DNA from: an uncultured Bacilli bacterium
Lineage (GTDB): Bacteria; Bacillota_I; Bacilli_A; RF39; UBA660
NCBI GenBank assembly: GCA_944371955.1
Contig: CALVYB010000001.1
Coordinates: 422 to 64,421 of the forward strand
DNA length: 64,000 nucleotides
Direction: 5' to 3'
Position numbers and translations under genes: made by a program. The notes beneath the pieces are model-generated. The model made no database searches. It had not been told where the DNA came from and was given only the letters and a program-made list of their open reading frames with translations. This document shows, one piece after another, positions 1-64,000 of this stretch. How positions within the stretch are numbered: position 1 is the stretch's first letter; each line of letters opens with the position of its first letter.

Positions 1-1064
1 ACTCTTGCCCTAACAGAGGTAAAACTTGTGTTATTTCTAATTGCGTAAATTTTAAAGAAGAAAAATGTCCTTTACTTGATAAACCTCCCTATGTTTGTAA
101 TGGATGTAAGCAAAAAACTCAATGTACTTTAACGAAACATATCTATGATGCTACTTTTGCCTTTCAAGAATATAGAGATGTTTTAATTGAAACTAGACAA
201 GGACTTTGGATTGATCAATCTGAAATAGATTACCTTAATTCTATTTTAGTTCCTTTAATTAAAATTCAAAATCAGTCCATTCATCAAGCTTTAGTAAATA
301 ATAAAAACAAAATTATGTTTAGTGATAAGACTATTTATAAGTTTATTGATTTAGGACTTTTAGATATTAGAAATATTGATTTACCTAGAAAAGTTAGATT
401 TAGACCAAGAAAGAAAAAAACTGCTATTTATAAAATAGATAAGACTTGTCTTGTTGGAAGAACTTATGAAGACTTTTTAGAGTATATGCAAAAACACCCT
501 GATACTCCCATTGTCCAAATGGATACTGTTGAAGGGATAAAAGGAGGTAAAGTGTTACTTACTATTCACTTTGTCAATTGTTCTTTTATGCTAGCTTTTA
601 TTAGAAATCATAATGACGCTCAATCTGTTATTGATATCTTTAATTATCTTCAAAATACATTGGGAATAGATAAGTTCAAAGAATTGTTTGTTTTAATACT
701 AACTGATAATGGTTCTGAGTTTTCTAATCCTACTGAAATTGAATTTAATCTTGGTACTGGAGAAAAAAGAACACAAATATTTTATTGCCATCCATCTAGT
801 CCTTATGAAAAAGGTTCTTGTGAAGTAAATCATGAGTTACTTAGAAGAATATTACCAAAAGGTACTTCTTTTGATAAGTTAAATCAAGAAGACATTAATT
901 TAATGATGTCACACATTAATTCTTACAAAAGAAAAAAACTGAATAATGAGTCACCATACTCTATATTCAGTAAACTTTATGGTGAAGACACCATAAACAA
1001 ATTAGGTATTCAAGAAATTGAACCTAACAATGTTAACTTATCTACCCGTTTATTAAAAAAATAA
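1..1064 (+). CDS. IS30-family transposase (5'-partial; reading frame is open from window position 3)
   Basis: Frame 3 is open from the window start through stop at 1064. C-terminal half has the IS30/rve DDE-core signature 'ILTDNGSEF' and the IS30-type tail 'HPSSPYEKGSCEVNHELLRRILPKGTSF'. N-terminal part is Cys-rich. Confidence 0.75.
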   Translation, partial: SCPNRGKTCVISNCVNFKEEKCPLLDKPPYVCNGCKQKTQCTLTKHIYDATFAFQEYRDVLIETRQGLWIDQSEIDYLNSILVPLIKIQNQSIHQALVNNKNKIMFSDKTIYKFIDLGLLDIRNIDLPRKVRFRPRKKKTAIYKIDKTCLVGRTYEDFLEYMQKHPDTPIVQMDTVEGIKGGKVLLTIHFVNCSFMLAFIRNHNDAQSVIDIFNYLQNTLGIDKFKELFVLILTDNGSEFSNPTEIEFNLGTGEKRTQIFYCHPSSPYEKGSCEVNHELLRRILPKGTSFDKLNQEDINLMMSHINSYKRKKLNNESPYSIFSKLYGEDTINKLGIQEIEPNNVNLSTRLLKK

Positions 1065-6000: not shown

Positions 6001-7261
6001 TTAACCTATACGAAAAGCTGGAGAAACACCACCAGTTACGCGCGCAGCATTATACAAAGTTGATTCATCATCTAGAGACGTTCTTACCGTAACATAAAAA
6101 CCGTTTATATAATGACTAGTAGCAGACCGTAACCAGAACCACCTTGGCGCACCTTGATATTCCTTAAATGCACCAGTCACATTAGATGCCGTTACACCAA
6201 TTTGTCTATAGTAGTCTAATTGTCGAGTTTGATTAGTTAAAGTATCTCTATAATGATCCACGCCATATATTTCTTTTGTTGATAATAAATATAATTTATC
6301 AATTGACTTAAAATTACTATTGTCTTCTGGACCATGGCTGGAAATCACAATAGTATCAATAATTCCATTCTTTAAATCATTGGGTAACATTTGATAAAAT
6401 TCGTTTTGCAAGTACCTCCTCATCTCAGTAGCAGGCCAGCCCCCCTTATTAAAACCTTTTGGATATTCGGTAGTTGTAAAATTCATCGGGTGACCAGTAA
6501 TTTGATCTGCAAATTCTAATACAAATCCACATGCTGTTTGAGAAAAATCTTCTGTACTACATTCCACAGGAGTTTCTTTGTTAGCTATCCTTAACACATG
6601 AACACCAAGTTTTCCTAAATCTACTTCTTTGGTATCTCCAACATGATACAGTTCAGTATTATTGTTTCTAACAGCCGCTATAATAGTATCCAAAGAGTCA
6701 TCCGCAAAAGATGTTACACTAGAGTCTTTATATGGACAAGCAAAAGAAGTTTCCGCAGGAATTGACCTAATAGTCGCGACTTTAACTTTTACATCTTCTC
6801 TTTCTAATTTGTCAGACTGTTTTTGATCATTTACAATACCATGGCCTTGTTTATCTGTTAGATAAATGTAATATTTAGTAGTTTGATTTTCATTACTATC
6901 TCGTTCTACTTTTATTTTTACATAACCAAACAAATCCGCATTCCCCCCATGGAGATTTACCCCCAGACTCCAACAATACTGGTAAAGAAGAATCTGTTGT
7001 ATCAATCGGTATATAATATGTACCTTCTGAATTTGATAGCGAACTTACTTTATTCTTACCACAAGTAACATCTTCTAGCAACCACATATTTCTAGCACCA
7101 TTAACATATTGTTGAGCAATATTTAAAAAGCTAGATTTTCTGGCATTCTCAATATATCTTGTCATAGATGGGATTGCAACCATCATTAAAATTCCAATAA
7201 TAACTATTACCGCTAATAATTCTATTAAAGTAAATCCTTTACTGTTTATTCTTTTTATAAT
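6001..7261 (-). pseudogene. type IV pilin/pseudopilin-like protein with a large C-terminal domain, interrupted by a frameshift at a G6 tract (two ORFs, 6896..7261 and 6001..7005)
   Basis: N-terminus 'KRINSKGFTLIELLAVIVIIGILMMVAIPSMTRY' is a class-III prepilin signal (G|FTLIE). There is no in-frame ATG/GTG/TTG between the upstream TAA and the signal; only ATT/ATA codons follow the AGGAGG site. The two reading frames meet at CCCCCC (6943..6948 on the plus strand); removing one G fuses them into a protein of about 420 aa. Confidence 0.6.
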
Positions 7262-7386
7262 ACCTCCTATTCTGTCATCTTATCAAAACTAATAAAATAA
7301 CAGTTTCCTAATTAATTCAATTATAAAATCAATAACCGTCATCACCTCATCCCACTTACCAATTTCATAACCTGTTAAATTATAAT

Positions 7387-15487: not shown

Positions 15488-16303
15488 TTAATTAGAGGAT
15501 TGTAATCTGTAATTTACAGGCGACAATCCTTTTAATTTTTCTTTAATTCTATCATAATTATAATACTTAATATAATCATCTATTGCTTTTATTAATTCAT
15601 CTATATTTTTATAATTATTTTCTTGTTCATAAAACATTTCTGTTTTAAGTATTCCAAAAAAGTTCTCCATCATTCCATTATCAATACTATTTCCTTTTCT
15701 AGACATACTTTGGATAATACCACGCCTTTTTAATCTTTCTTGATATGATCGATGTTGATATTGCCATCCTTGATCTGAATGAAGTATTAATCCATTGAAA
15801 TCATCACTCTTTTCAAATGCTTTATTAAGCATATCAGTTATTTGTTCCAAATTAGGTGTTTTAGAAATATTGTGAGATATAACTTCACCATTGAAACCAT
15901 CCAATATTGGCGATAAATAACATTTTTCCCCACGTAGATTAAACTCTGTTACATCTGTATACCATTTCTTATTTGGTTTATCTGCTCCAAAATCTCTATT
16001 AATATGATTATCCGCAATTTTCCCTATGGTTCCTTGATAAGAAGAATATTTTCTTTTATTTCTTTTTAATGGTCTTAACCCTAATTTAACCATTATTCTA
16101 TAGACTTTTTTATGATTAACATTATACCCCTGATTTCTAAGTTCTAAAGTAATTCTACGATAACCATATCTTTTCTTATGATCAATAAAGATTGCCTTTA
16201 TTTTATTAATTATTTCTTCATTTTTAATGTCTTTGTCAATTTTCGATAAAGTATAGTAAAATGTAGATTTAGCTAATCTAGATATTTGTAGAAGAATCAT
16301 CAA
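15488..16303 (-). CDS. IS3-family transposase OrfB (DDE integrase core)
   Basis: 'HSDQGWQYQ' and rve-type core. Overlaps orfA in the -1 frame, the usual IS3 programmed-frameshift arrangement. Confidence 0.85.
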   Translation of the reverse strand: MMILLQISRLAKSTFYYTLSKIDKDIKNEEIINKIKAIFIDHKKRYGYRRITLELRNQGYNVNHKKVYRIMVKLGLRPLKRNKRKYSSYQGTIGKIADNHINRDFGADKPNKKWYTDVTEFNLRGEKCYLSPILDGFNGEVISHNISKTPNLEQITDMLNKAFEKSDDFNGLILHSDQGWQYQHRSYQERLKRRGIIQSMSRKGNSIDNGMMENFFGILKTEMFYEQENNYKNIDELIKAIDDYIKYYNYDRIKEKLKGLSPVNYRLQSSN

Positions 16304-25653: not shown

Positions 25654-27387
25654 TTAATAACTTGCTACAACAAATTTCCATCTCTCAAAATGATTAGAAG
25701 AAGCCGGTAATGAGAAAAGCGGAGTATAAGCCGTACTTTTATACCCAACATTAATATTAGCTGCATTATATGGAGAAATTGTATAATATCCATTTCCTAA
25801 AGGTGTAATAGTAAGGTTTTGATTAACAGAAGATAAATTAGGAGAATTCAAATAAACCATCGCTTCAGACGACAATACAACAAAATCTTTCTGAAATTGA
25901 GCATTTTGAATATGATAATAACCACCATTTTTATAAACTCTCCACGCTTGATTATCTTCTCCTGTAAATAGTTGCATAGTAGCAGCAAAGTTGTCACCTT
26001 CCTGTTGAAGGGTCAAAACCTTATTATCACTAGCAGAAGAAAAAATATAATAATTGTTTTCTGGCAAATCACCAGTGGAATCATATTGAAATGTATTATA
26101 ACGAATACCATCAGAAGTTTCATATTCGTTTTGTTGACCAACAGTAGAAAGATCACTACTAGCCACTCTAAGTGGAACCCACGTGCTTTTATCAGCGCTT
26201 ACCAATAATTCGTGTCCAGTTACTCTAGATGATGAACTAGTATAAGAATAATTATGCCATACCGCTATTTCATCTAAATCCATCGGACTCTCCAATTGAT
26301 AAATTACACATTTTCGACCGCTTCCATTTATACTAGCATAAGTTCCAGGTGCATCAGCTTTACCATCATTAATAAGCGCAGTATTACTAAGGGTCCCTCC
26401 AATAGTTTCTACATAAGTTAGTTCTTGGCGAACACCGTTGCGTATAGCTTGTATTTCTACCCACTTTCCAATATTAGTACCACTACTAGATCCCGTAACG
26501 CAATCTTGGATATACATAACTTGATTTAGCTTAGTATTACTGCCTCTTCGAGGAGGTGTATTAACGTCATTATCAGACACCTTAGTAATTTTAAACTTAC
26601 CAACTCCAGAGTTGACGCCTGAAATCATCATACCATTATAAATAACGGGGGTATATGACTCTAGCACCATAGAACCACTAGAATTATATTTTCCACGATG
26701 AATCTGAAAAGTTTTAACAGTCTGATTAGTAGAAGAGCGCACGCCCGCATGCCCAGCTATATAGGAAGAGCCACCACCTGTACTAGTAGATCCTCCGTAT
26801 CCTCCTCCACCAGAACTACTAGCACTAGTCATCGTCTGAGTACCAGGGCTGCTACCTTTTCCAGCTATAGCTCCTCCATCACCAGTTGAACCACCACCAC
26901 CAGCTACCATAATACGAGAATCTAATGACTGAGAATCATTCCACTCTCCCGAAATAAGCCTAACATCACTAGCACCGCCACCAGTACTACCACTGTTAAA
27001 AGTATCATTAGCTCCTCCTTGAGCACCAAGATAAAAATAAAGATAATCATTATCTTCCAAAAAAATAATCCCAGAAGTATAGGAACCTCGTCCAGCATTA
27101 GCACCAGTTCCTCCGCTAGCACCCCATAATTCAATCTTATACCATCCTGCATCTGGAACAATAAATTGTCTTCCTTGAGCATCAACTACCCCACCAATAT
27201 ATTCTCCTTCCGTATTAGCAAGACTCAATCGATTAAGTTCATCTTCAACCTTGTCAACAAAAGTCACAGTATTTTGTCGGTTAGTACTTAAATTGCCAAA
27301 CAAAGCCAAAACAATTAATAAAGACATTATCATAAGCCCATATAATAATGTAGAAATAGCAAAACCTCGATTGTTTAACTTTTTCAT
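25654..27387 (-). CDS. pilin-like (prepilin-type N-terminus) surface protein with a Gly-rich domain and a C-terminal ricin-B (QxW) lectin domain
   Basis: N-terminus 'MKKLNNRG|FAISTLLYGLMIMSLLIVLALF' has the prepilin G|F cleavage context but lacks Glu5. Long G/S/T-rich tracts follow. The C-terminus carries QxW-type repeats ('DNQAWRVY', 'FERWKFV') typical of ricin-type beta-trefoil lectins. Confidence 0.6.
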   Translation of the reverse strand: MKKLNNRGFAISTLLYGLMIMSLLIVLALFGNLSTNRQNTVTFVDKVEDELNRLSLANTEGEYIGGVVDAQGRQFIVPDAGWYKIELWGASGGTGANAGRGSYTSGIIFLEDNDYLYFYLGAQGGANDTFNSGSTGGGASDVRLISGEWNDSQSLDSRIMVAGGGGSTGDGGAIAGKGSSPGTQTMTSASSSGGGGYGGSTSTGGGSSYIAGHAGVRSSTNQTVKTFQIHRGKYNSSGSMVLESYTPVIYNGMMISGVNSGVGKFKITKVSDNDVNTPPRRGSNTKLNQVMYIQDCVTGSSSGTNIGKWVEIQAIRNGVRQELTYVETIGGTLSNTALINDGKADAPGTYASINGSGRKCVIYQLESPMDLDEIAVWHNYSYTSSSSRVTGHELLVSADKSTWVPLRVASSDLSTVGQQNEYETSDGIRYNTFQYDSTGDLPENNYYIFSSASDNKVLTLQQEGDNFAATMQLFTGEDNQAWRVYKNGGYYHIQNAQFQKDFVVLSSEAMVYLNSPNLSSVNQNLTITPLGNGYYTISPYNAANINVGYKSTAYTPLFSLPASSNHFERWKFVVASY

Positions 27388-46016: not shown

Positions 46017-47426
46017 GAGTCTGTAAAAAACTTTGTGTAAAGTAGAAATCCTTTCTATGGTAATATAGAAATATATACCAAGAAAGGATTTTTAAATGAA
46101 AGAAAATAAAAATAATGAAGTAGTAAAATATATATTAGAAAATTATGATATAAAAAATGCAAATGATATTGCTGATGCTTTAAAAGATATGTTTAAAGAT
46201 ACAATACAAACAATGATGAATGCAGAATTTGATTCATCCATGGGATATGAAAAAAGTGATAGCAAAGTAGAAAAAACCAATTATAGAAATGGTTATTCAA
46301 CCAAGAATGTAAAAAGTAAGTTTGGAGAATTTGAACTTTCTGTACCAAGAGATAGAAACGCAGAATTTGAACCACAAATAGTTCCAAAAAATAAAAGAGA
46401 TATTACAGGAATTGAAGAAAAAGTAATAAATCTTTATGGAAAAGGATTGTCAACAAGAGAAATAAGTGATTCAATCGAAGATATATATGGAGTGCAGCTT
46501 TCAGCCACAATGATAAGTAATATAACCGATGCCGTTTTAGAAGAAATAGAGGAATGGCAAAAAAGACCTTTAAAAGAGGTCTATCCAATTATATTTATTG
46601 ATGCAATACATTTTAATGTAAAACAAGAAAATGTCATTGTTAAGAAAGCAGCTTATGTAATTTTAGGAGTAACTCCAGAAGGTTTTAAGGAAGTATTAGG
46701 AATATGGATTGGAGAAAATGAATCGGCAAAATATTGGTTAAGTGTACTCAATGAATTAAAAAATCGTGGAGTTAAAGATATATTAATAATTTGTTCTGAT
46801 GGATTAAAAGGAATAAGCGAGGCTATTAAAGCTGTTTTTCCAAATACTATGCAACAAAGATGTATTGTTCATTTAATCAGAAATTCTGTTAAGTTTGTTT
46901 CTTATAAACACTTAAAAGAATTTTGTAATGATTTAAGAACTATATATAAATCAAATACTGAAAAGGAGGCACGAGAAAATTTAGAAAAAGTAAAACAAAA
47001 ATGGAATTCCATTTATCCAACAAGTTTAAAAGTATGGGAAGATAATTGGGAAGCAATTTGTACTTTATTTAATTATTCTAAAGAATTAAGAAAAATAATG
47101 TATACAACAAATGCGATTGAGAGCCTGAATCGTTCTTATCGCAAATACACAAAAACTAAAGGTGTATTTACTAGTGATAATTCTTTGATGAAATGTTTAT
47201 ATTTATCCACTAAGAACATTGAGAAAAAATGGACTACTAGATACCCCAACTGGGATATGATTTATAATGAATTAAATATTTTATATCCAGATCGTTTAAT
47301 TTGATATTTGAAAATTTATTAAATCATGATAATATTTGATTATAAAAAAAGAGACTGAGTTCTTCAATCTCTAAAAAATCTTGTTACCATAGATTGGTAT
47401 CTTTACACAAAGTTTTTTACACTCTC
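46017..47426 (+). mobile_element. IS256-family insertion sequence with 26-bp imperfect terminal inverted repeats and an 8-bp target-site duplication TAAAAAAA (46009..46016 and 47427..47434)
   Basis: Left inverted repeat GAGTCTGTAAAAAACTTTGTGTAAAG (46017..46042). Right inverted repeat, reverse complement of 47401..47426, is GAGAGTGTAAAAAACTTTGTGTAAAG. The two direct repeats flanking it are identical. Confidence 0.85.
46096..47304 (+). CDS. IS256-family transposase
   Basis: 402 aa. MULE/IS256 DDE transposase motifs ('IFIDAIHFNV', 'ICSDGLKG'). Confidence 0.9.
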   Translation: MKENKNNEVVKYILENYDIKNANDIADALKDMFKDTIQTMMNAEFDSSMGYEKSDSKVEKTNYRNGYSTKNVKSKFGEFELSVPRDRNAEFEPQIVPKNKRDITGIEEKVINLYGKGLSTREISDSIEDIYGVQLSATMISNITDAVLEEIEEWQKRPLKEVYPIIFIDAIHFNVKQENVIVKKAAYVILGVTPEGFKEVLGIWIGENESAKYWLSVLNELKNRGVKDILIICSDGLKGISEAIKAVFPNTMQQRCIVHLIRNSVKFVSYKHLKEFCNDLRTIYKSNTEKEARENLEKVKQKWNSIYPTSLKVWEDNWEAICTLFNYSKELRKIMYTTNAIESLNRSYRKYTKTKGVFTSDNSLMKCLYLSTKNIEKKWTTRYPNWDMIYNELNILYPDRLI

Positions 47427-52082: not shown

Positions 52083-52101
52083 AGAGTGATTAAATCACTC
52101 T
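52083..52101 (-). terminator. rho-independent terminator of the pilin-adhesin operon
   Basis: AGAGTGAT-TAA-ATCACTCT hairpin followed by a T-run on the minus strand, 27 nt after the stop at 52128. Confidence 0.5.
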
Positions 52102-52127: not shown

Positions 52128-52541
52128 TCAACCAGCAGCGGGAGCATCTGTCACTTCTTCTACAGCAACACTATACTGTTTAGGAAGAGATTTACTATCA
52201 TAGGTATAAACTTCTTCCTTAACCTCACCAACTTCTAATGCCGGTAAAACAATTTGGATATTATCTATCATCTTCTGTTTCTGATTATAGAAAATAATAA
52301 TTGCATTGGTATTCTCTAATTTTAATTCACTATCATTTTTCATTTTTATTTTAAATGAATTATCATCTATCAATTGAAATTCTAAAAACTCATAACCAAA
52401 ACATGCTGTAAAAAGGAATTTAACTTTCGACTCAGTCTTTTCTTCAATACTTGGTTCGACTTGATAGAGATTTAAACCAACACCAATACCCAACATGATA
52501 ATTCCTAATAAAGTGCATATTATTATACTTTTCTTTAACAT
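52128..52541 (-). CDS. small membrane-anchored protein co-transcribed with the pilin-adhesin gene
   Basis: Start set at the ATG at 52539..52541 (MLKKSIIICTLLGIIMLGIGVGL...), which lies 1 nt from the upstream stop (ATGTTAA). One TM helix plus a roughly 110-aa domain. Confidence 0.5.
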   Translation of the reverse strand: MLKKSIIICTLLGIIMLGIGVGLNLYQVEPSIEEKTESKVKFLFTACFGYEFLEFQLIDDNSFKIKMKNDSELKLENTNAIIIFYNQKQKMIDNIQIVLPALEVGEVKEEVYTYDSKSLPKQYSVAVEEVTDAPAAG

Positions 52542-54736
52542 CCTGACTCCCCATTCCCTCCTATATAATCTACAGTGAACCTTACAGAAAATGTTGAAGT
52601 ATTGCCTACATAATCCTCTAAAGTATACTCTCTCCAATATTGACAAGGATTATCTTTATGAGGTTCTCTTTGGCTCAAACACCCTCCATCTGGTGTTAGT
52701 CTATTAGCATAATCATACATCTCAAAACCAGATTTCCAATAAGTCTTATAACCACTTCCGACGTCGGAAGCTTTAAAACTCACTCCCATAACATCAAAAG
52801 ATCCTGGTGTATCAACTAAACACACTGTAGCTGTACAACTAGCTGGTGCTTTACAAAATATATCTTTAATGTATGGACCATTCTTTATCACAACATCATC
52901 CTTATTCTTTTGCTCCACGTATACTCTATCTTTTAATAACACTTCATGAACACGCGGTGCGGTAAGATCTTGCTTAATCGTTTTTTTTGTTACTCCAGAG
53001 ACATTTCCGGCTTTATCTACTGCTCTTACATATCTATACGTTATACCATCACTATAGTTTCTATATAGTTTATTGGAAAATGTTGTTTGATCCCAAAAAT
53101 TCCAGTCATACCATACCTTATTGTTTGGTGAAATTTGGTATTTACTTATTCCACTTCCACTATCCGTTGACTTCGGTACTGGATTATTTTTATCAGTACT
53201 ACCAGCGGTATAAAATAAAGTTGAACTCCATGTATTATCTGGTAACGATTGCCAACTACCATTTACTAATTCTACAGCCGGTGCGCTTGGAGCTGTCTTA
53301 TCAATTTTTACCGTTTGATTGGCAGGACAGTCAGTAGAATTACCAGCATTATCATAAACTTTACCAGGGCCTTCAGTTGTCGAATTAATATCTTTCGTAT
53401 ACTTCTTAATAACATCTGTTGTACAACCGCTTAAATTATCACTACAATCCCCAGTCAATGTTCTGGCACCGTTTGTCCACGCCGCATTACCACCGCTAGA
53501 AACACAGGTTGGAGGTGTTTTGTCAATATACGTATTAACAGTACAATTTCTACTATTACCAGCATTATCTTCTATCACAACAACACCAGTTTTACCTTCT
53601 GAAGAAATAGTTTCACTATAAGTATCTTTTACACATTCACTTCCACCCGTATCATTACAAGCAACTGTTACTTCTTGATTTTGATTAGTCCAAGTCTTAT
53701 TCTCACCACTTTTACTTCCGCAAGATGGTTTATCAACATCTAAATAAACATCTACTTCACAAGTATTAGTATTACCTGCATTATCCTCGATAGTAAAGGT
53801 ATAAGTTTTAATACTTGAGCCAAAATATTTACTATAAGAAGTTTCCTTACAACCACTAGCTGCATCATCACAAGCCTGTTCTATTTTAAAAGGAGTATTT
53901 GACCATGTTGTCTTATCACCACTGCTATCTCCACAAACAGGTTTATCATTATCTATCTTATAAATTCCTGCCACAGTATCAATAACTGTTTGATTACCTA
54001 AAGCATCTTGAATCCCATTAGTTGAAGAAGAATACCAAGGACGAACTACTAATTTATATTGTCCTGTCACGGTAGGAATGTTACTAGTTGGAATTTTATC
54101 AGTTACTTTCTTCACACCTTTTTTATTTTTATAATTATGAGTATATTCTTCGCTTACTTTTGTCCCAGAGATATCAGTCCAATAATATATAATACCAATA
54201 TTTTTATTCAATGTGTAATCATCTGATATTATAATACTTATTTTTAAATTTTTTGACTGTACCCAGTCACGACTAGATGGAGAAATAGTAACCGTAGGTC
54301 CTTTGGTATCTGGTTCATTGGTACATAAATCGGTATCTATCTTTTTTTCATAAACTATTTTCTCACTATTTCTACAAGTAATAGCTGTTGAATATAAATA
54401 ATTATCATTAACTTTTCTAACTTCTACATACGTTTCAGCATCATTACTACAAGTAATATTTTTATCACCAAAATCTTTAATTAAATTTTGTTTTTTTAGT
54501 TCTGAATAAGGAACTGTAACACATCCAGAAGTATTATTTCCAAATAAATCTTTAGAACGAGAATCTATATATAATTTAGCTCCACTCTCAATAGAACTAT
54601 AATAAGCATCATACTTCTTATTTTTATTTGCACTTTGAATTTTAGAGACTTGAGGTAATGCCAATATTAAAATTACTCCCATAATGGCTATTACTACAAT
54701 CAATTCAACCAAAGTAAAACCTTTATTATTTCTCAT
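52535..54736 (-). CDS. modular type IV pilin-like adhesin: class-III prepilin N-terminus fused to tandem Cys-containing Ig-like repeats
   Basis: N-terminus 'MRNNKG|FTLVELIVVIAIMGVILILALP' is a canonical prepilin signal with Glu5. Three or four repeats of roughly 70 aa follow, of the form 'DKP.CG...G....WTN......AC.D..SGC....Y........TF.IEDNAGN...C.V.VY.D'. The C-terminus is Cys-rich. 733 aa. Confidence 0.7.
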   Translation of the reverse strand: MRNNKGFTLVELIVVIAIMGVILILALPQVSKIQSANKNKKYDAYYSSIESGAKLYIDSRSKDLFGNNTSGCVTVPYSELKKQNLIKDFGDKNITCSNDAETYVEVRKVNDNYLYSTAITCRNSEKIVYEKKIDTDLCTNEPDTKGPTVTISPSSRDWVQSKNLKISIIISDDYTLNKNIGIIYYWTDISGTKVSEEYTHNYKNKKGVKKVTDKIPTSNIPTVTGQYKLVVRPWYSSSTNGIQDALGNQTVIDTVAGIYKIDNDKPVCGDSSGDKTTWSNTPFKIEQACDDAASGCKETSYSKYFGSSIKTYTFTIEDNAGNTNTCEVDVYLDVDKPSCGSKSGENKTWTNQNQEVTVACNDTGGSECVKDTYSETISSEGKTGVVVIEDNAGNSRNCTVNTYIDKTPPTCVSSGGNAAWTNGARTLTGDCSDNLSGCTTDVIKKYTKDINSTTEGPGKVYDNAGNSTDCPANQTVKIDKTAPSAPAVELVNGSWQSLPDNTWSSTLFYTAGSTDKNNPVPKSTDSGSGISKYQISPNNKVWYDWNFWDQTTFSNKLYRNYSDGITYRYVRAVDKAGNVSGVTKKTIKQDLTAPRVHEVLLKDRVYVEQKNKDDVVIKNGPYIKDIFCKAPASCTATVCLVDTPGSFDVMGVSFKASDVGSGYKTYWKSGFEMYDYANRLTPDGGCLSQREPHKDNPCQYWREYTLEDYVGNTSTFSVRFTVDYIGGNGESGC

Positions 54737-54988: not shown

Positions 54989-55876
54989 CTAATAGAATGA
55001 TAGCTGACCTGTAGCATCTTCTATGACAGGTGATTTCTGACTTGTTCCCACTGTTCCTAATTTTTGGTATGTTTTTGGTTTTTCCTTATCATCAGCTGTC
55101 TTTTTACCAATAAACAAATCTGCAAACGCTGGTAAACAGACCTTTATAGTACTAGAATCACCGGTGTTAGCCAAATATAAGAGAGTACTGATTTTTTGTT
55201 CATCCGGCATTCTCCCTACTGTATCACAAGTAATCTTTTGTTCCCTCAATGTAGCAGTTGCTCTGTCAATCCAATCTCTCAGATTTGGATATTGCTTTTT
55301 AACAACATTTATTTTTTCTTGTTCACCACAACCGATTAATGCCGCTAAGACTCTTTCGTTAACACCAAAGTAGGATATATAGTTGACAATTGCATCAGCT
55401 GAATGCGAACCCACAACAGCGTCTTCTAACTTTTCCTGTACCATAGACAAAGCAGGATCCCTATCTTCCCGACCATAAAAATTATTATTTAAAATTCTTT
55501 GTACAGGATCAAAATACCAATAATCGTTCTTTTCTGTTGCCAACTCTATAATTGCAAAAGATAATTGAGCAATTCGCACATAATCGTACCGTCTATCAGC
55601 TATAGATAAAAAATCAGTCATGTGCTCTATAGACCTCAAACCAATCATATACTCAGTACTTCTTTCAAATACAATCTTGTTATAATAAGAGCACGAAATC
55701 ATACCATTTATATCATTATTCTTGACAAGACGATCTGCCATTCGCTGATTGTCTGATGCAGTAAGTGGAAAGTCATCTATGCAAAGTTCAATGAAACCAG
55801 CCACTGAAATCTTATCAATGAAAGGATCCATAAACCATTCACGAGAAGCTCCTGGCAAGTTTAAAAAGTATTGCAA
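54989..55876 (-). CDS. hypothetical protein (higher-GC gene; probable true start is the ATG at 55829..55831)
   Basis: The tracked ORF begins at a TTG. An internal 'MDPFIDK' start is more plausible. Local GC is around 40%. Confidence 0.4.
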   Translation of the reverse strand: MQYFLNLPGASREWFMDPFIDKISVAGFIELCIDDFPLTASDNQRMADRLVKNNDINGMISCSYYNKIVFERSTEYMIGLRSIEHMTDFLSIADRRYDYVRIAQLSFAIIELATEKNDYWYFDPVQRILNNNFYGREDRDPALSMVQEKLEDAVVGSHSADAIVNYISYFGVNERVLAALIGCGEQEKINVVKKQYPNLRDWIDRATATLREQKITCDTVGRMPDEQKISTLLYLANTGDSSTIKVCLPAFADLFIGKKTADDKEKPKTYQKLGTVGTSQKSPVIEDATGQLSFY

Positions 55877-56256
55877 ATAGTATTTTTATTAACTATATTT
55901 GCTTCTTGAGCTACTTTTGCAGCCACTGATTTTTCGAACTTACACAAAGTGCTTTTCTTTATTCTTTCATTCTCTACAGCAGTTTTTACTATACCACATA
56001 AATCAGCAAGATAGCACATATAGAAACGACATTGCTCAAAAATACTATTACATAAATAATCACCGGAATCTAGATCCATTAAAGAAGGATCACTTAACAA
56101 ATACTTTGCAAATTCAAAGCACTTACAAGAAACAACTACCGAAATTAAGTCATCAACGTTCAAAATTCCATTATCAATAAATAATCTAACCGTATCAAAA
56201 GAGCCATTTAAAGGATATTTAATTAAGTTTAAAATCATTTTTTCTTTACGATTCAT
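55861..56256 (-). CDS. hypothetical Cys-rich protein (131 aa)
   Basis: ORF overlapping the next gene by 16 nt at a T5/A5 run. It may be the N-terminal part of one gene. Confidence 0.35.
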   Translation of the reverse strand: MNRKEKMILNLIKYPLNGSFDTVRLFIDNGILNVDDLISVVVSCKCFEFAKYLLSDPSLMDLDSGDYLCNSIFEQCRFYMCYLADLCGIVKTAVENERIKKSTLCKFEKSVAAKVAQEANIVNKNTICNTF

Positions 56257-63623: not shown

Positions 63624-64000
63624 TCAAAAACCAAGTAGTGCAACCAACACCTCTGGAGTAAGTTTAATAAAATACAAAAAGGTAAACGCAAGAAGTAAAA
63701 ATGGTCCAAAAGGAATCATTTTTTCTTTGTTTTTATACAATAAAAATAAAGACATTGGCAAAGCAAAAACACTTCCCAAAAATATTGCAACAGTACCTAA
63801 AAGAGGATCTAAAACAAGTCCAAACACAAACATCATTTTAACATCCCCACCACCGAGACTTTCCTTTTTTAAACTTTTTTCTCCCAACCACATAATTGCG
63901 TACATTAAAGAAAAAAGAAAAACTCCAGTAAAAATATGTTTTAAAGTATCTATAGCACCCACAGACAAAAACTGAACAATAATAAAATAAATAGAAAAAA
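63624..64000 (-). CDS. prepilin peptidase (A24 family), 3' portion; N-terminus lies beyond the window end
   Basis: Frame is open to position 64000. C-terminal motifs 'GGGDVKMMFVFGLVL' and 'IPFGPFLLLA' are typical of PilD/ComC-type peptidases. Confidence 0.7.
   Translation of the reverse strand, partial: FSIYFIIVQFLSVGAIDTLKHIFTGVFLFSLMYAIMWLGEKSLKKESLGGGDVKMMFVFGLVLDPLLGTVAIFLGSVFALPMSLFLLYKNKEKMIPFGPFLLLAFTFLYFIKLTPEVLVALLGF

Follow-up and report, generated by a model that had tools for sequence, protein, structure and literature searches.

A putative modular type IV pilin with an Ig-like stalk and a variable C-terminal domain from uncultured gut Bacilli

In a 64,000-nucleotide stretch of contig CALVYB010000001.1 (the window), from an uncultured gut Bacilli bacterium related to Candidatus Faecimonas, we have analysed a reverse-strand gene whose 733-residue product is likely to be a modular type IV pilin with an immunoglobulin (Ig)-like stalk and a variable, ligand-binding tip. 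AlphaFold2 (AF2) modelling supports a protein composed of a prepilin-signal head (~139 residues) followed by a string of Ig-like β-sandwich domains. Among homologues the N-terminal ~480 residues are conserved, whereas the C-terminal domains have diverged steeply, in a pattern like that of a mosaic or of cassettes. Genes for a prepilin peptidase, a platform protein, an assembly ATPase and minor prepilins all lie within about 20 kb of the pilin gene in the same species. The gene had been singled out in an earlier reading made from the letters of the window (the sequence-only reading).

Prepilin signal, pilin module and stalk

The gene and the segments of its product are as follows (coordinates are those of the window; pLDDT, predicted local distance difference test).

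52535..54736, reverse strand: putative modular type IV prepilin gene, 733 residues plus stop; ATG start with a good ribosome-binding site (Shine-Dalgarno)
54719..54736, reverse strand: leader peptide MRNNKG, residues 1–6; predicted cleavage after Gly6
54320..54718, reverse strand: predicted pilin module, residues 7–139; α1 helix and four-stranded sheet, with Cys72, Cys96, Cys121 and Cys138
53954..54319, reverse strand: linker and β-sandwich domain D1, residues 140–261, ending QDALGN; all-β in the AF2 model (pLDDT 87–93) and kept in nearly all homologues
53306..53953, reverse strand: R1–R3, tandem 72-residue, four-Cys Ig-like (HYR-like) repeats, residues 262–477, recognised from repeat z-scores and modelled at pLDDT ~90
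52943..53305, reverse strand: domain D5, residues 478–598, resembling Big_13/OmpL47-type Ig-like domains in sub-threshold matches
52538..52942, reverse strand: terminal Cys-rich β domain D6, residues 599–733, the most variable part and proposed ligand-binding tip

The N-terminus reads MRNNKG/FTLVELIVVIAIMGVILILALPQ, where the slash marks the predicted cleavage site. It had been called a textbook class III (prepilin) signal, and both curated models agree: the match to Pfam N_methyl reaches 34.1 bits, where 21.2 are required, and that to TIGR02532 reaches 27.4 bits, where 16.3 are required. With Gly−1, Phe1, Glu5, Gly14 and Pro22 (numbering of the mature protein) and a stretch of ~20 hydrophobic residues, the signal is T4a-like. 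The prepilin motif recurs in 43 of 46 relatives; family alignments of 42–46 relatives show no substitution at F7, T8 or E11, and keep G20 and P28 in at least 90% of the sequences.

The AF2 model of the whole protein, built from a 46-sequence alignment, has a mean pLDDT of 80.6, rising to ~90 over residues 150–480. Its head is a 57-residue helix (9–65) set against a small sheet (strands 70–76, 103–109, 112–123 and 126–131), and the isolated module (residues 1–145) was modelled with the same topology (pLDDT 81.5). The helix is therefore not predicted to be a mere signal-anchor, the outcome that the sequence-only reading had named as fatal to its proposal; the model places a pilin-type module at residues 1–139. 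Sequence matches to solved pilins (Geobacter PilA, S. sanguinis PilE1, MshA and PilA) span the α1 helix only, and the pilin fold of residues 1–139 is supported by topology and ranking rather than proven. A stand-alone relative (P0149, 141 residues, 48% identical) has a TAA codon directly after the last conserved Cys, which argues that residues 1–139 constitute a complete pilin and that the remainder is a graft. Two further candidates for stand-alone pilins, P0126 and P0150, were dropped; they lie on low-coverage contigs of ≤ 1.2 kb and end in TGA. A pilin module joined to at least one extra structural module that is not specific to type IV pilus biology is the definition of a modular pilin, and the 733-residue protein has this composition.

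Beyond residue ~140 the model continues as an unbroken run of all-β domains, about six β-sandwiches in total. Three of these are the tandem repeats (residues 262–333, 334–405 and 406–477), which align locally with one another at z-scores of 24, 10 and 9.5 relative to shuffles. All 29 repeat units taken from homologues keep the four Cys that each repeat contains, and these may form disulfides. The sequence-only reading had counted three or four Cys-containing repeats of ~70 residues; three stand, but there is no fourth. The β domains at 140–261, 478–598 and 599–733 also end in a DxxGN motif, but in the same shuffle test showed no significant sequence similarity. The 'IEDNAGN' core noted in the sequence-only reading is exact in two repeats (residues 316 and 388), but the third carries 'VYDNAGN'.

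An Ig or HYR-type fold had been guessed for this region. The AF2 model does show Ig-like β-sandwiches, and the repeats have weak Pfam similarity to DUF7743, HYR, HYR_4C and Big_13, but no score exceeds its cut-off (for repeat 1, HYR 16.7 bits versus 21.7 and HYR_4C 13.3 versus 27). Across the 29 repeat units there were weak matches to HYR (12 units), HYR_4C (8) and DUF7743 (2), with best E-values of 4.5e-4 for DUF7743 and 1.4e-3 for HYR. The three families (HYR, HYR_4C and DUF7743; PF02494, PF23237 and PF24893) comprise β-sandwich units of ~70–80 residues that end in D-x-x-G-N...C, like the 72-residue repeats, and the four-Cys pattern is that of HYR_4C. Because every match falls under the Pfam gathering cut-offs, we speak of resemblance to these families and not of membership. 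D5 likewise has sub-threshold matches to Big_13 (E = 0.011) and NF047446 (E = 0.0075) over residues 515–587; its first ~35 residues are poorly modelled (pLDDT 44–52 for residues 491–514). When the whole model was compared with the PDB by Foldseek, the matches were Ig-like chains (cadherins, macroglobulin domains of complement, the S-layer proteins SbsB, Sap and EA1, and the grappling hook GhpA), a generic likeness of predicted folds that points to no specific function.

Conserved stalk and divergent C-terminal domains

More than 552 homologues of the protein were retrieved, and an identical protein (P0001) is already present in public assemblies. The only name given to any of them is 'prepilin-type N-terminal cleavage/methylation domain-containing protein', and the named ones come from Candidatus Faecimonas, Mycoplasmatota and metagenome-assembled genomes of uncultured Bacilli. 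Homologues are 40–100% identical over residues 1 to ~486 and occupy a syntenic site between CmpB/Zip/BacA and PGM/UvrD-like genes. A search with residues 1–145, run exhaustively, gave 4,807 clusters at 50% identity (E up to 1e-3), 670 of which reach 1e-10; among the best 150 matches to the pilin module most proteins have 500–1,650 residues and a few have 139–154. Extra domains recognised in 46 relatives are Big_3_2 (16 of the 46, at E up to 1e-3), DUF7743, TSP1-like, Big_13 and Big_3_3, together with a marginal Imm1 in two; Big_3_2, DUF7743 and the TSP1-like repeats are of an adhesive type, and no enzymatic domain was recognised in this set.

The C-terminus had been described as Cys-rich, and we count six Cys in the last 106 residues, the final residue (...IGGNGESGC) being one of them. 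Its conservation was assessed by local BLAST against 120 retrieved homologues. Most align with the query only to residues ~348, ~486 or ~594, and similarity to D6 was seen only in P0002, P0003 and, weakly, P0043. Identity to P0002 falls from 91% in the pilin module (1–139) and 86% in D1 (140–261) to 57% in the last domain (599–733); the corresponding values for P0003 are 94%, 93% and 37%. A word-index search with residues 478–733 was uninformative, since it returned no match, not even the full-length protein itself, which is in the collection; this is apparently a limitation of the index.

The same transition is visible in the DNA. The window and a related contig (L007) are 95.6% identical without a break from position 64000 to 53509, inside the pilin gene, where similarity collapses; beyond the breakpoint the small gene downstream of the pilin gene is back to 86% identity. 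The ratio of non-synonymous to synonymous substitution rates (dN/dS) is below 1 in every segment (0.07–0.49), while dS climbs about ten-fold, from 0.19 to ~2, in the 3′ part. Positive selection on the tip was rejected on these grounds. The rise in dS with dN/dS below 1 suggests instead that the 3′ part has been replaced by an older, divergent allele, giving a mosaic gene.

In a more distant relative (L003) two to three full-length modular pilin paralogues stand in tandem. Between two of the full-length genes lies a 263-residue open reading frame (ORF; L003 4887–5678, forward strand) that lacks a pilin module and shares 65% identity with internal or C-terminal regions of other proteins of the family; we take it for an orphan (5′-truncated) cassette or else for a remnant of recombination. 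No silent C-terminal cassettes were found within the window. One could go further and propose that large modular pilins, far from being occasional decorations of a pilus tip, are the main pilin repertoire of this abundant lineage, that they are a multigene family in which a conserved pilin and stalk gain C-terminal binding cassettes by recombination, and that they are displayed along a 'bottle-brush' filament or as pseudopilin adhesins that span the wall. We rate this as distinctly improbable, and keep it in view because of the orphan cassette, the intragenic identity breakpoint and the tandem paralogues. If true, it would amount to adhesin variation that is like neisserial pilE/pilS in outcome, but acts on grafted modules.

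Assembly genes and genomic neighbourhood

The elements of the assembly machinery are listed below; L094 is a locus from the same species as the window.

63624..64000 of the window, reverse strand: 3′ end of a prepilin peptidase gene (Peptidase_A24/PilD), C-terminal 124 residues, running off the window edge; identified from its translation and from identity to orthologues
L094 8698–9908, reverse strand: two adjacent prepilin ORFs of ~196 and ~207 residues; no Pfam or NCBIfam match
L094 10001–11734: T2SSE ATPase, 577 residues

Read on the strand that carries the pilin gene, the last 377 nucleotides of the window translate as ...SLGGGDVKMMFVFGL...LLGF followed by a stop, including the motif GGGDVK. 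This tail is 97% identical to residues 130–253 of a full-length, 253-residue A24 protein on L011, a contig that shares 99.4% nucleotide identity with the window (same species); the Pfam A24 annotation is taken from orthologous contigs. The peptidase gene lies ~8.9 kb upstream of the pilin gene. On this same contig, of 63,278 bp, a 500-residue T2SSF platform gene adjoins A24 directly, and the 577-residue T2SSE ATPase gene follows ~8 kb beyond T2SSF. In a relative the T2SSE annotation has a Pfam E-value of 2.5e-118. The two ~200-residue ORFs are divergent from T2SSE, carry the prepilin signals KG/FVLVE and KG/MTVVE, and are conserved as a pair in L017 (2371–3554), L018 and L014; we regard them as candidate minor or tip pilins. 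Against the NCBIfam models, the ATPase scores best with GspE/PilB and the platform with GspF/PilC, both under the equivalog cut-offs; the ComGA and ComGB models score worst of the relevant ones. The GspE/PilB-type core of the L094 ATPase spans residues 9–392, beginning nearly at the N-terminus, with ~185 extra residues C-terminal to it and not the usual N-terminal domains. Relatives of this ATPase have 555–731 residues.

The gene order in the same-species contig and in syntenic relatives is T2SSF (500–506 residues), A24 (253 residues), DnaB-like, HD, DHH, VCA0040-like, BacA, Zip, CmpB, a gene that we could not name, the modular pilin, a small anchored ORF, PGM and UvrD-like. The sequence-only reading had placed the pilin gene apart from any pilus-assembly genes. 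This does not hold, as the A24 tail is in the window itself and T2SSF, T2SSE and prepilins are on the 99.4%-identical contig. It had also made its proposal depend on pilus or competence machinery being present in the genome, and A24, T2SSF and T2SSE were indeed found when sought in the species. Screening nearly all ORFs of 100 residues or more in the window against Pfam revealed no complete pilus-assembly gene, only the partial A24 tail; the ORFs there are housekeeping genes (gyrAB, the dnaK operon, PPDK, PGM, helicases, Fe-hydrogenase), transposases and unknowns.

The window contains a further modular prepilin gene.

6001..7262, reverse strand: second modular prepilin gene, N_methyl and DUF6273; frameshift at a G6 run

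Its N_methyl match scores 33.8 bits and its C-terminal DUF6273 match has an E-value of 1.2e-13. The frame breaks at the G6 homopolymer near 6950, and the AGGAGG ribosome-binding site is followed by ATT or ATA as the sole plausible start. We see three possible explanations: a pseudogene, an assembly error and slipped-strand phase switching.

Directly downstream of the 733-residue pilin gene lie two more elements.

52128..52541, reverse strand: 137-residue ORF, N-terminal membrane anchor or signal and a small, probably β-rich domain; start overlapping the stop of the pilin gene
52083..52101, reverse strand: intrinsic-terminator-like hairpin followed by a T-run, directly 3′ of the partner ORF

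The ATG of the partner, at 52541, and the stop of the pilin gene share the letters ATGTTAA, as the sequence-only reading had described. That reading also called the product membrane-anchored, and we find a single N-terminal hydrophobic segment in it. A two-gene operon had been proposed on this basis. The overlap fits, and a bicistronic unit is reasonable because the terminator-like hairpin directly follows the partner ORF, but the partner is not conserved beyond close relatives: its identity is 98% in L011 and 82% in L007, and neither BLAST nor a profile built from L003 paralogues detected relatives beyond these two. It has no Pfam or NCBIfam family match. A PDB match to the Nav β4 Ig domain (E = 0.002) was too weak to be used. 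With conservation confined to very close relatives, the partner does not form part of a conserved two-gene system. Other, more distant orthologous loci have different small, N-terminally anchored proteins of 184, 230 or 432 residues at this place. What recurs is thus the placing of a small anchored protein after the pilin, rather than a conserved two-component system. In L003 (2902–9974) eight paralogous genes for single-pass membrane proteins of ~140–260 residues, 26–40% identical to one another and with no Pfam match, occur among and after the modular pilin genes.

Several other features of the region were recorded. The gene just upstream of the pilin gene (54989–56256, reverse strand) is split into overlapping ORFs of 131 and 295 residues, and its counterpart on L011 (8480–9748) is one intact gene of 422 residues; the split is either a frameshift or an assembly error. 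At 25654–27387 (reverse strand) a 577-residue protein has an ALK/LTK glycine-rich domain (3.2e-19) joined to a ricin-type β-trefoil lectin, an unusual pairing in bacteria. Mobile-element genes are interspersed among the housekeeping genes: an IS3-type integrase (rve) at 15488–16303 (reverse strand) and a Mutator-family transposase at 46096–47304 (forward strand). An ORF at 315–1064 (forward strand), with no Pfam match, looks transposase-like from its sequence. In L005 an ISL3 transposase lies beside the pilin locus.

Proposed function, rival explanations and relation to known pilins

We suggest that the prepilin peptidase would remove the six-residue leader after Gly6 and that the hydrophobic α1 (Phe1, Glu5, Gly14 and Pro22 of the mature protein) would first anchor the protein in the membrane. 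The GspE/PilB-class ATPase and the GspF/PilC-class platform would then build the ~139-residue pilin module into a filament of the type IV kind, and the two ~200-residue minor prepilins encoded beside the ATPase probably take part in assembly. The remaining ~590 residues would form a stalk of about six Ig-like domains, three of them the four-Cys HYR-like repeats, that keeps the fast-diverging C-terminal domain at a distance from the filament, the most likely role of this domain being to bind a ligand and so mediate adhesion. The protein may sit at the tip or along the shaft, and is a plausible candidate for a tip or minor pilin.

Some of our results weigh against a filament-borne adhesin. The C-terminal third of the AF2 model is only moderately confident (pLDDT 45–80), the isolated pilin module gave no significant Foldseek match in the PDB, and no ligand-binding domain of known specificity was identified. 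In the ~85 kb surveyed for the species (the window and L094) we found no ordinary short major pilin and recognised neither PilM/N/O nor PilT. That no small major pilin was seen would also suit a prepilin-peptidase substrate that is never polymerised, in which α1 serves as a membrane anchor and the Ig stalk spans the wall to display the tip. Archaeal surface proteins with class III signals, such as components of the Sulfolobus bindosome, resemble this arrangement. The family consists mostly of very large proteins (500–1600 residues) with several paralogues per locus, and a stalk of about six Ig domains would be roughly right to cross a Gram-positive wall. However, a simple anchor would need neither an invariant Glu5, nor Gly14 and Pro22 conserved to at least 90%, nor a complete globular pilin module. 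The assembly ATPase and platform are retained, with minor prepilins adjoining the ATPase, and the same module is also found on its own as a pilin. We consider a non-polymerised anchor unlikely, and a type IV pilin the likely identity of the protein.

The best NCBIfam matches of the N-terminus are ComGC and ComGE, and GspE and GspF are the highest-scoring models for the ATPase and platform, which could point to a component of a competence (ComG-type) or type II secretion-like pseudopilus, with a role in DNA uptake or protein export and not in adhesion. The ComG/Gsp pilin matches, however, cover only the N-terminal ~50 residues (~2–56) and remain far under the equivalog cut-offs (38.4 bits versus 75 for ComGC, 32.7 versus 49 for ComGE); the ATPase and platform fall under every equivalog cut-off, ComGA and ComGB being the lowest. 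Com and Gsp pseudopilins are not known to carry any hypervariable Ig-like extension of ~590 residues, and we hold such a role to be very unlikely. That the protein is an ordinary Sec-secreted or sortase-anchored Ig-repeat adhesin, with a prepilin-like N-terminus by chance, is effectively refuted. Only the Ig-like repeat body, common in Gram-positive adhesins, speaks for it, whereas the protein lacks both an LPXTG-like motif and a hydrophobic anchor at its C-terminus (its sole hydrophobic segment lies at the N-terminus), its prepilin motif exceeds curated cut-offs and is shared by nearly all of the 46 relatives, and the predicted helix has 57 residues in place of the ~20 of a signal peptide.

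Modular pilins had been thought poorly described outside a few streptococcal examples. That view is outdated: more than 1,200 such proteins with 264 architectures have been catalogued in monoderms and diderms (Raynaud et al., 2021; PMC8179133), including multi-domain cases, Ig/FN3-type modules and adhesin modules, and the authors predict many further modular pilins whose modules escape database signatures. The 733-residue protein is one of these signature-escaping modular pilins, and belongs to a large family, as yet unstudied, of uncultured gut Bacilli; a literature search found no papers on RFN20 pili.

In function the protein most resembles the modular pilins PilB (pilin and vWA) and PilC (pilin and lectin) of S. 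sanguinis (PMC8179133). It shares with them a class III signal, a small pilin module and a short linker, non-pilin modules, a large size, presumed presentation by a monoderm type IV pilus and a predicted part in adhesion. It differs in having neither a vWA nor a ConA-like lectin domain but a ~590-residue Ig-like stalk and a variable terminal domain, and no sequence similarity is detectable beyond α1. Unlike the contiguous pil locus of S. sanguinis, its gene is ~9 kb away from the machinery genes. In architecture the protein resembles the type IVb minor pilins CofB of enterotoxigenic Escherichia coli (ETEC) and TcpB of V. cholerae, which consist of a pilin domain, β-repeat domains and a C-terminal β-sandwich and are thought to sit at the pilus tip (PMC8179133). 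A PDB sequence search found no similarity to these, and the 733-residue protein differs from them in its T4a-like α1N, its six-residue leader with Phe1, Gly14 and Pro22, and its monoderm host.

The concept of the modular pilin is unchanged by our findings, as multi-domain and Ig/FN3-bearing examples are already documented as widespread; if our interpretation is correct, a well-populated Ig-stalk architecture would be added to their catalogue. It would also mean that uncultured gut Bacilli with small genomes invest heavily in adhesins displayed on type IV filaments, with a conserved stalk and exchangeable tips, and would provide concrete candidates for attachment to mucus, diet particles or other cells.

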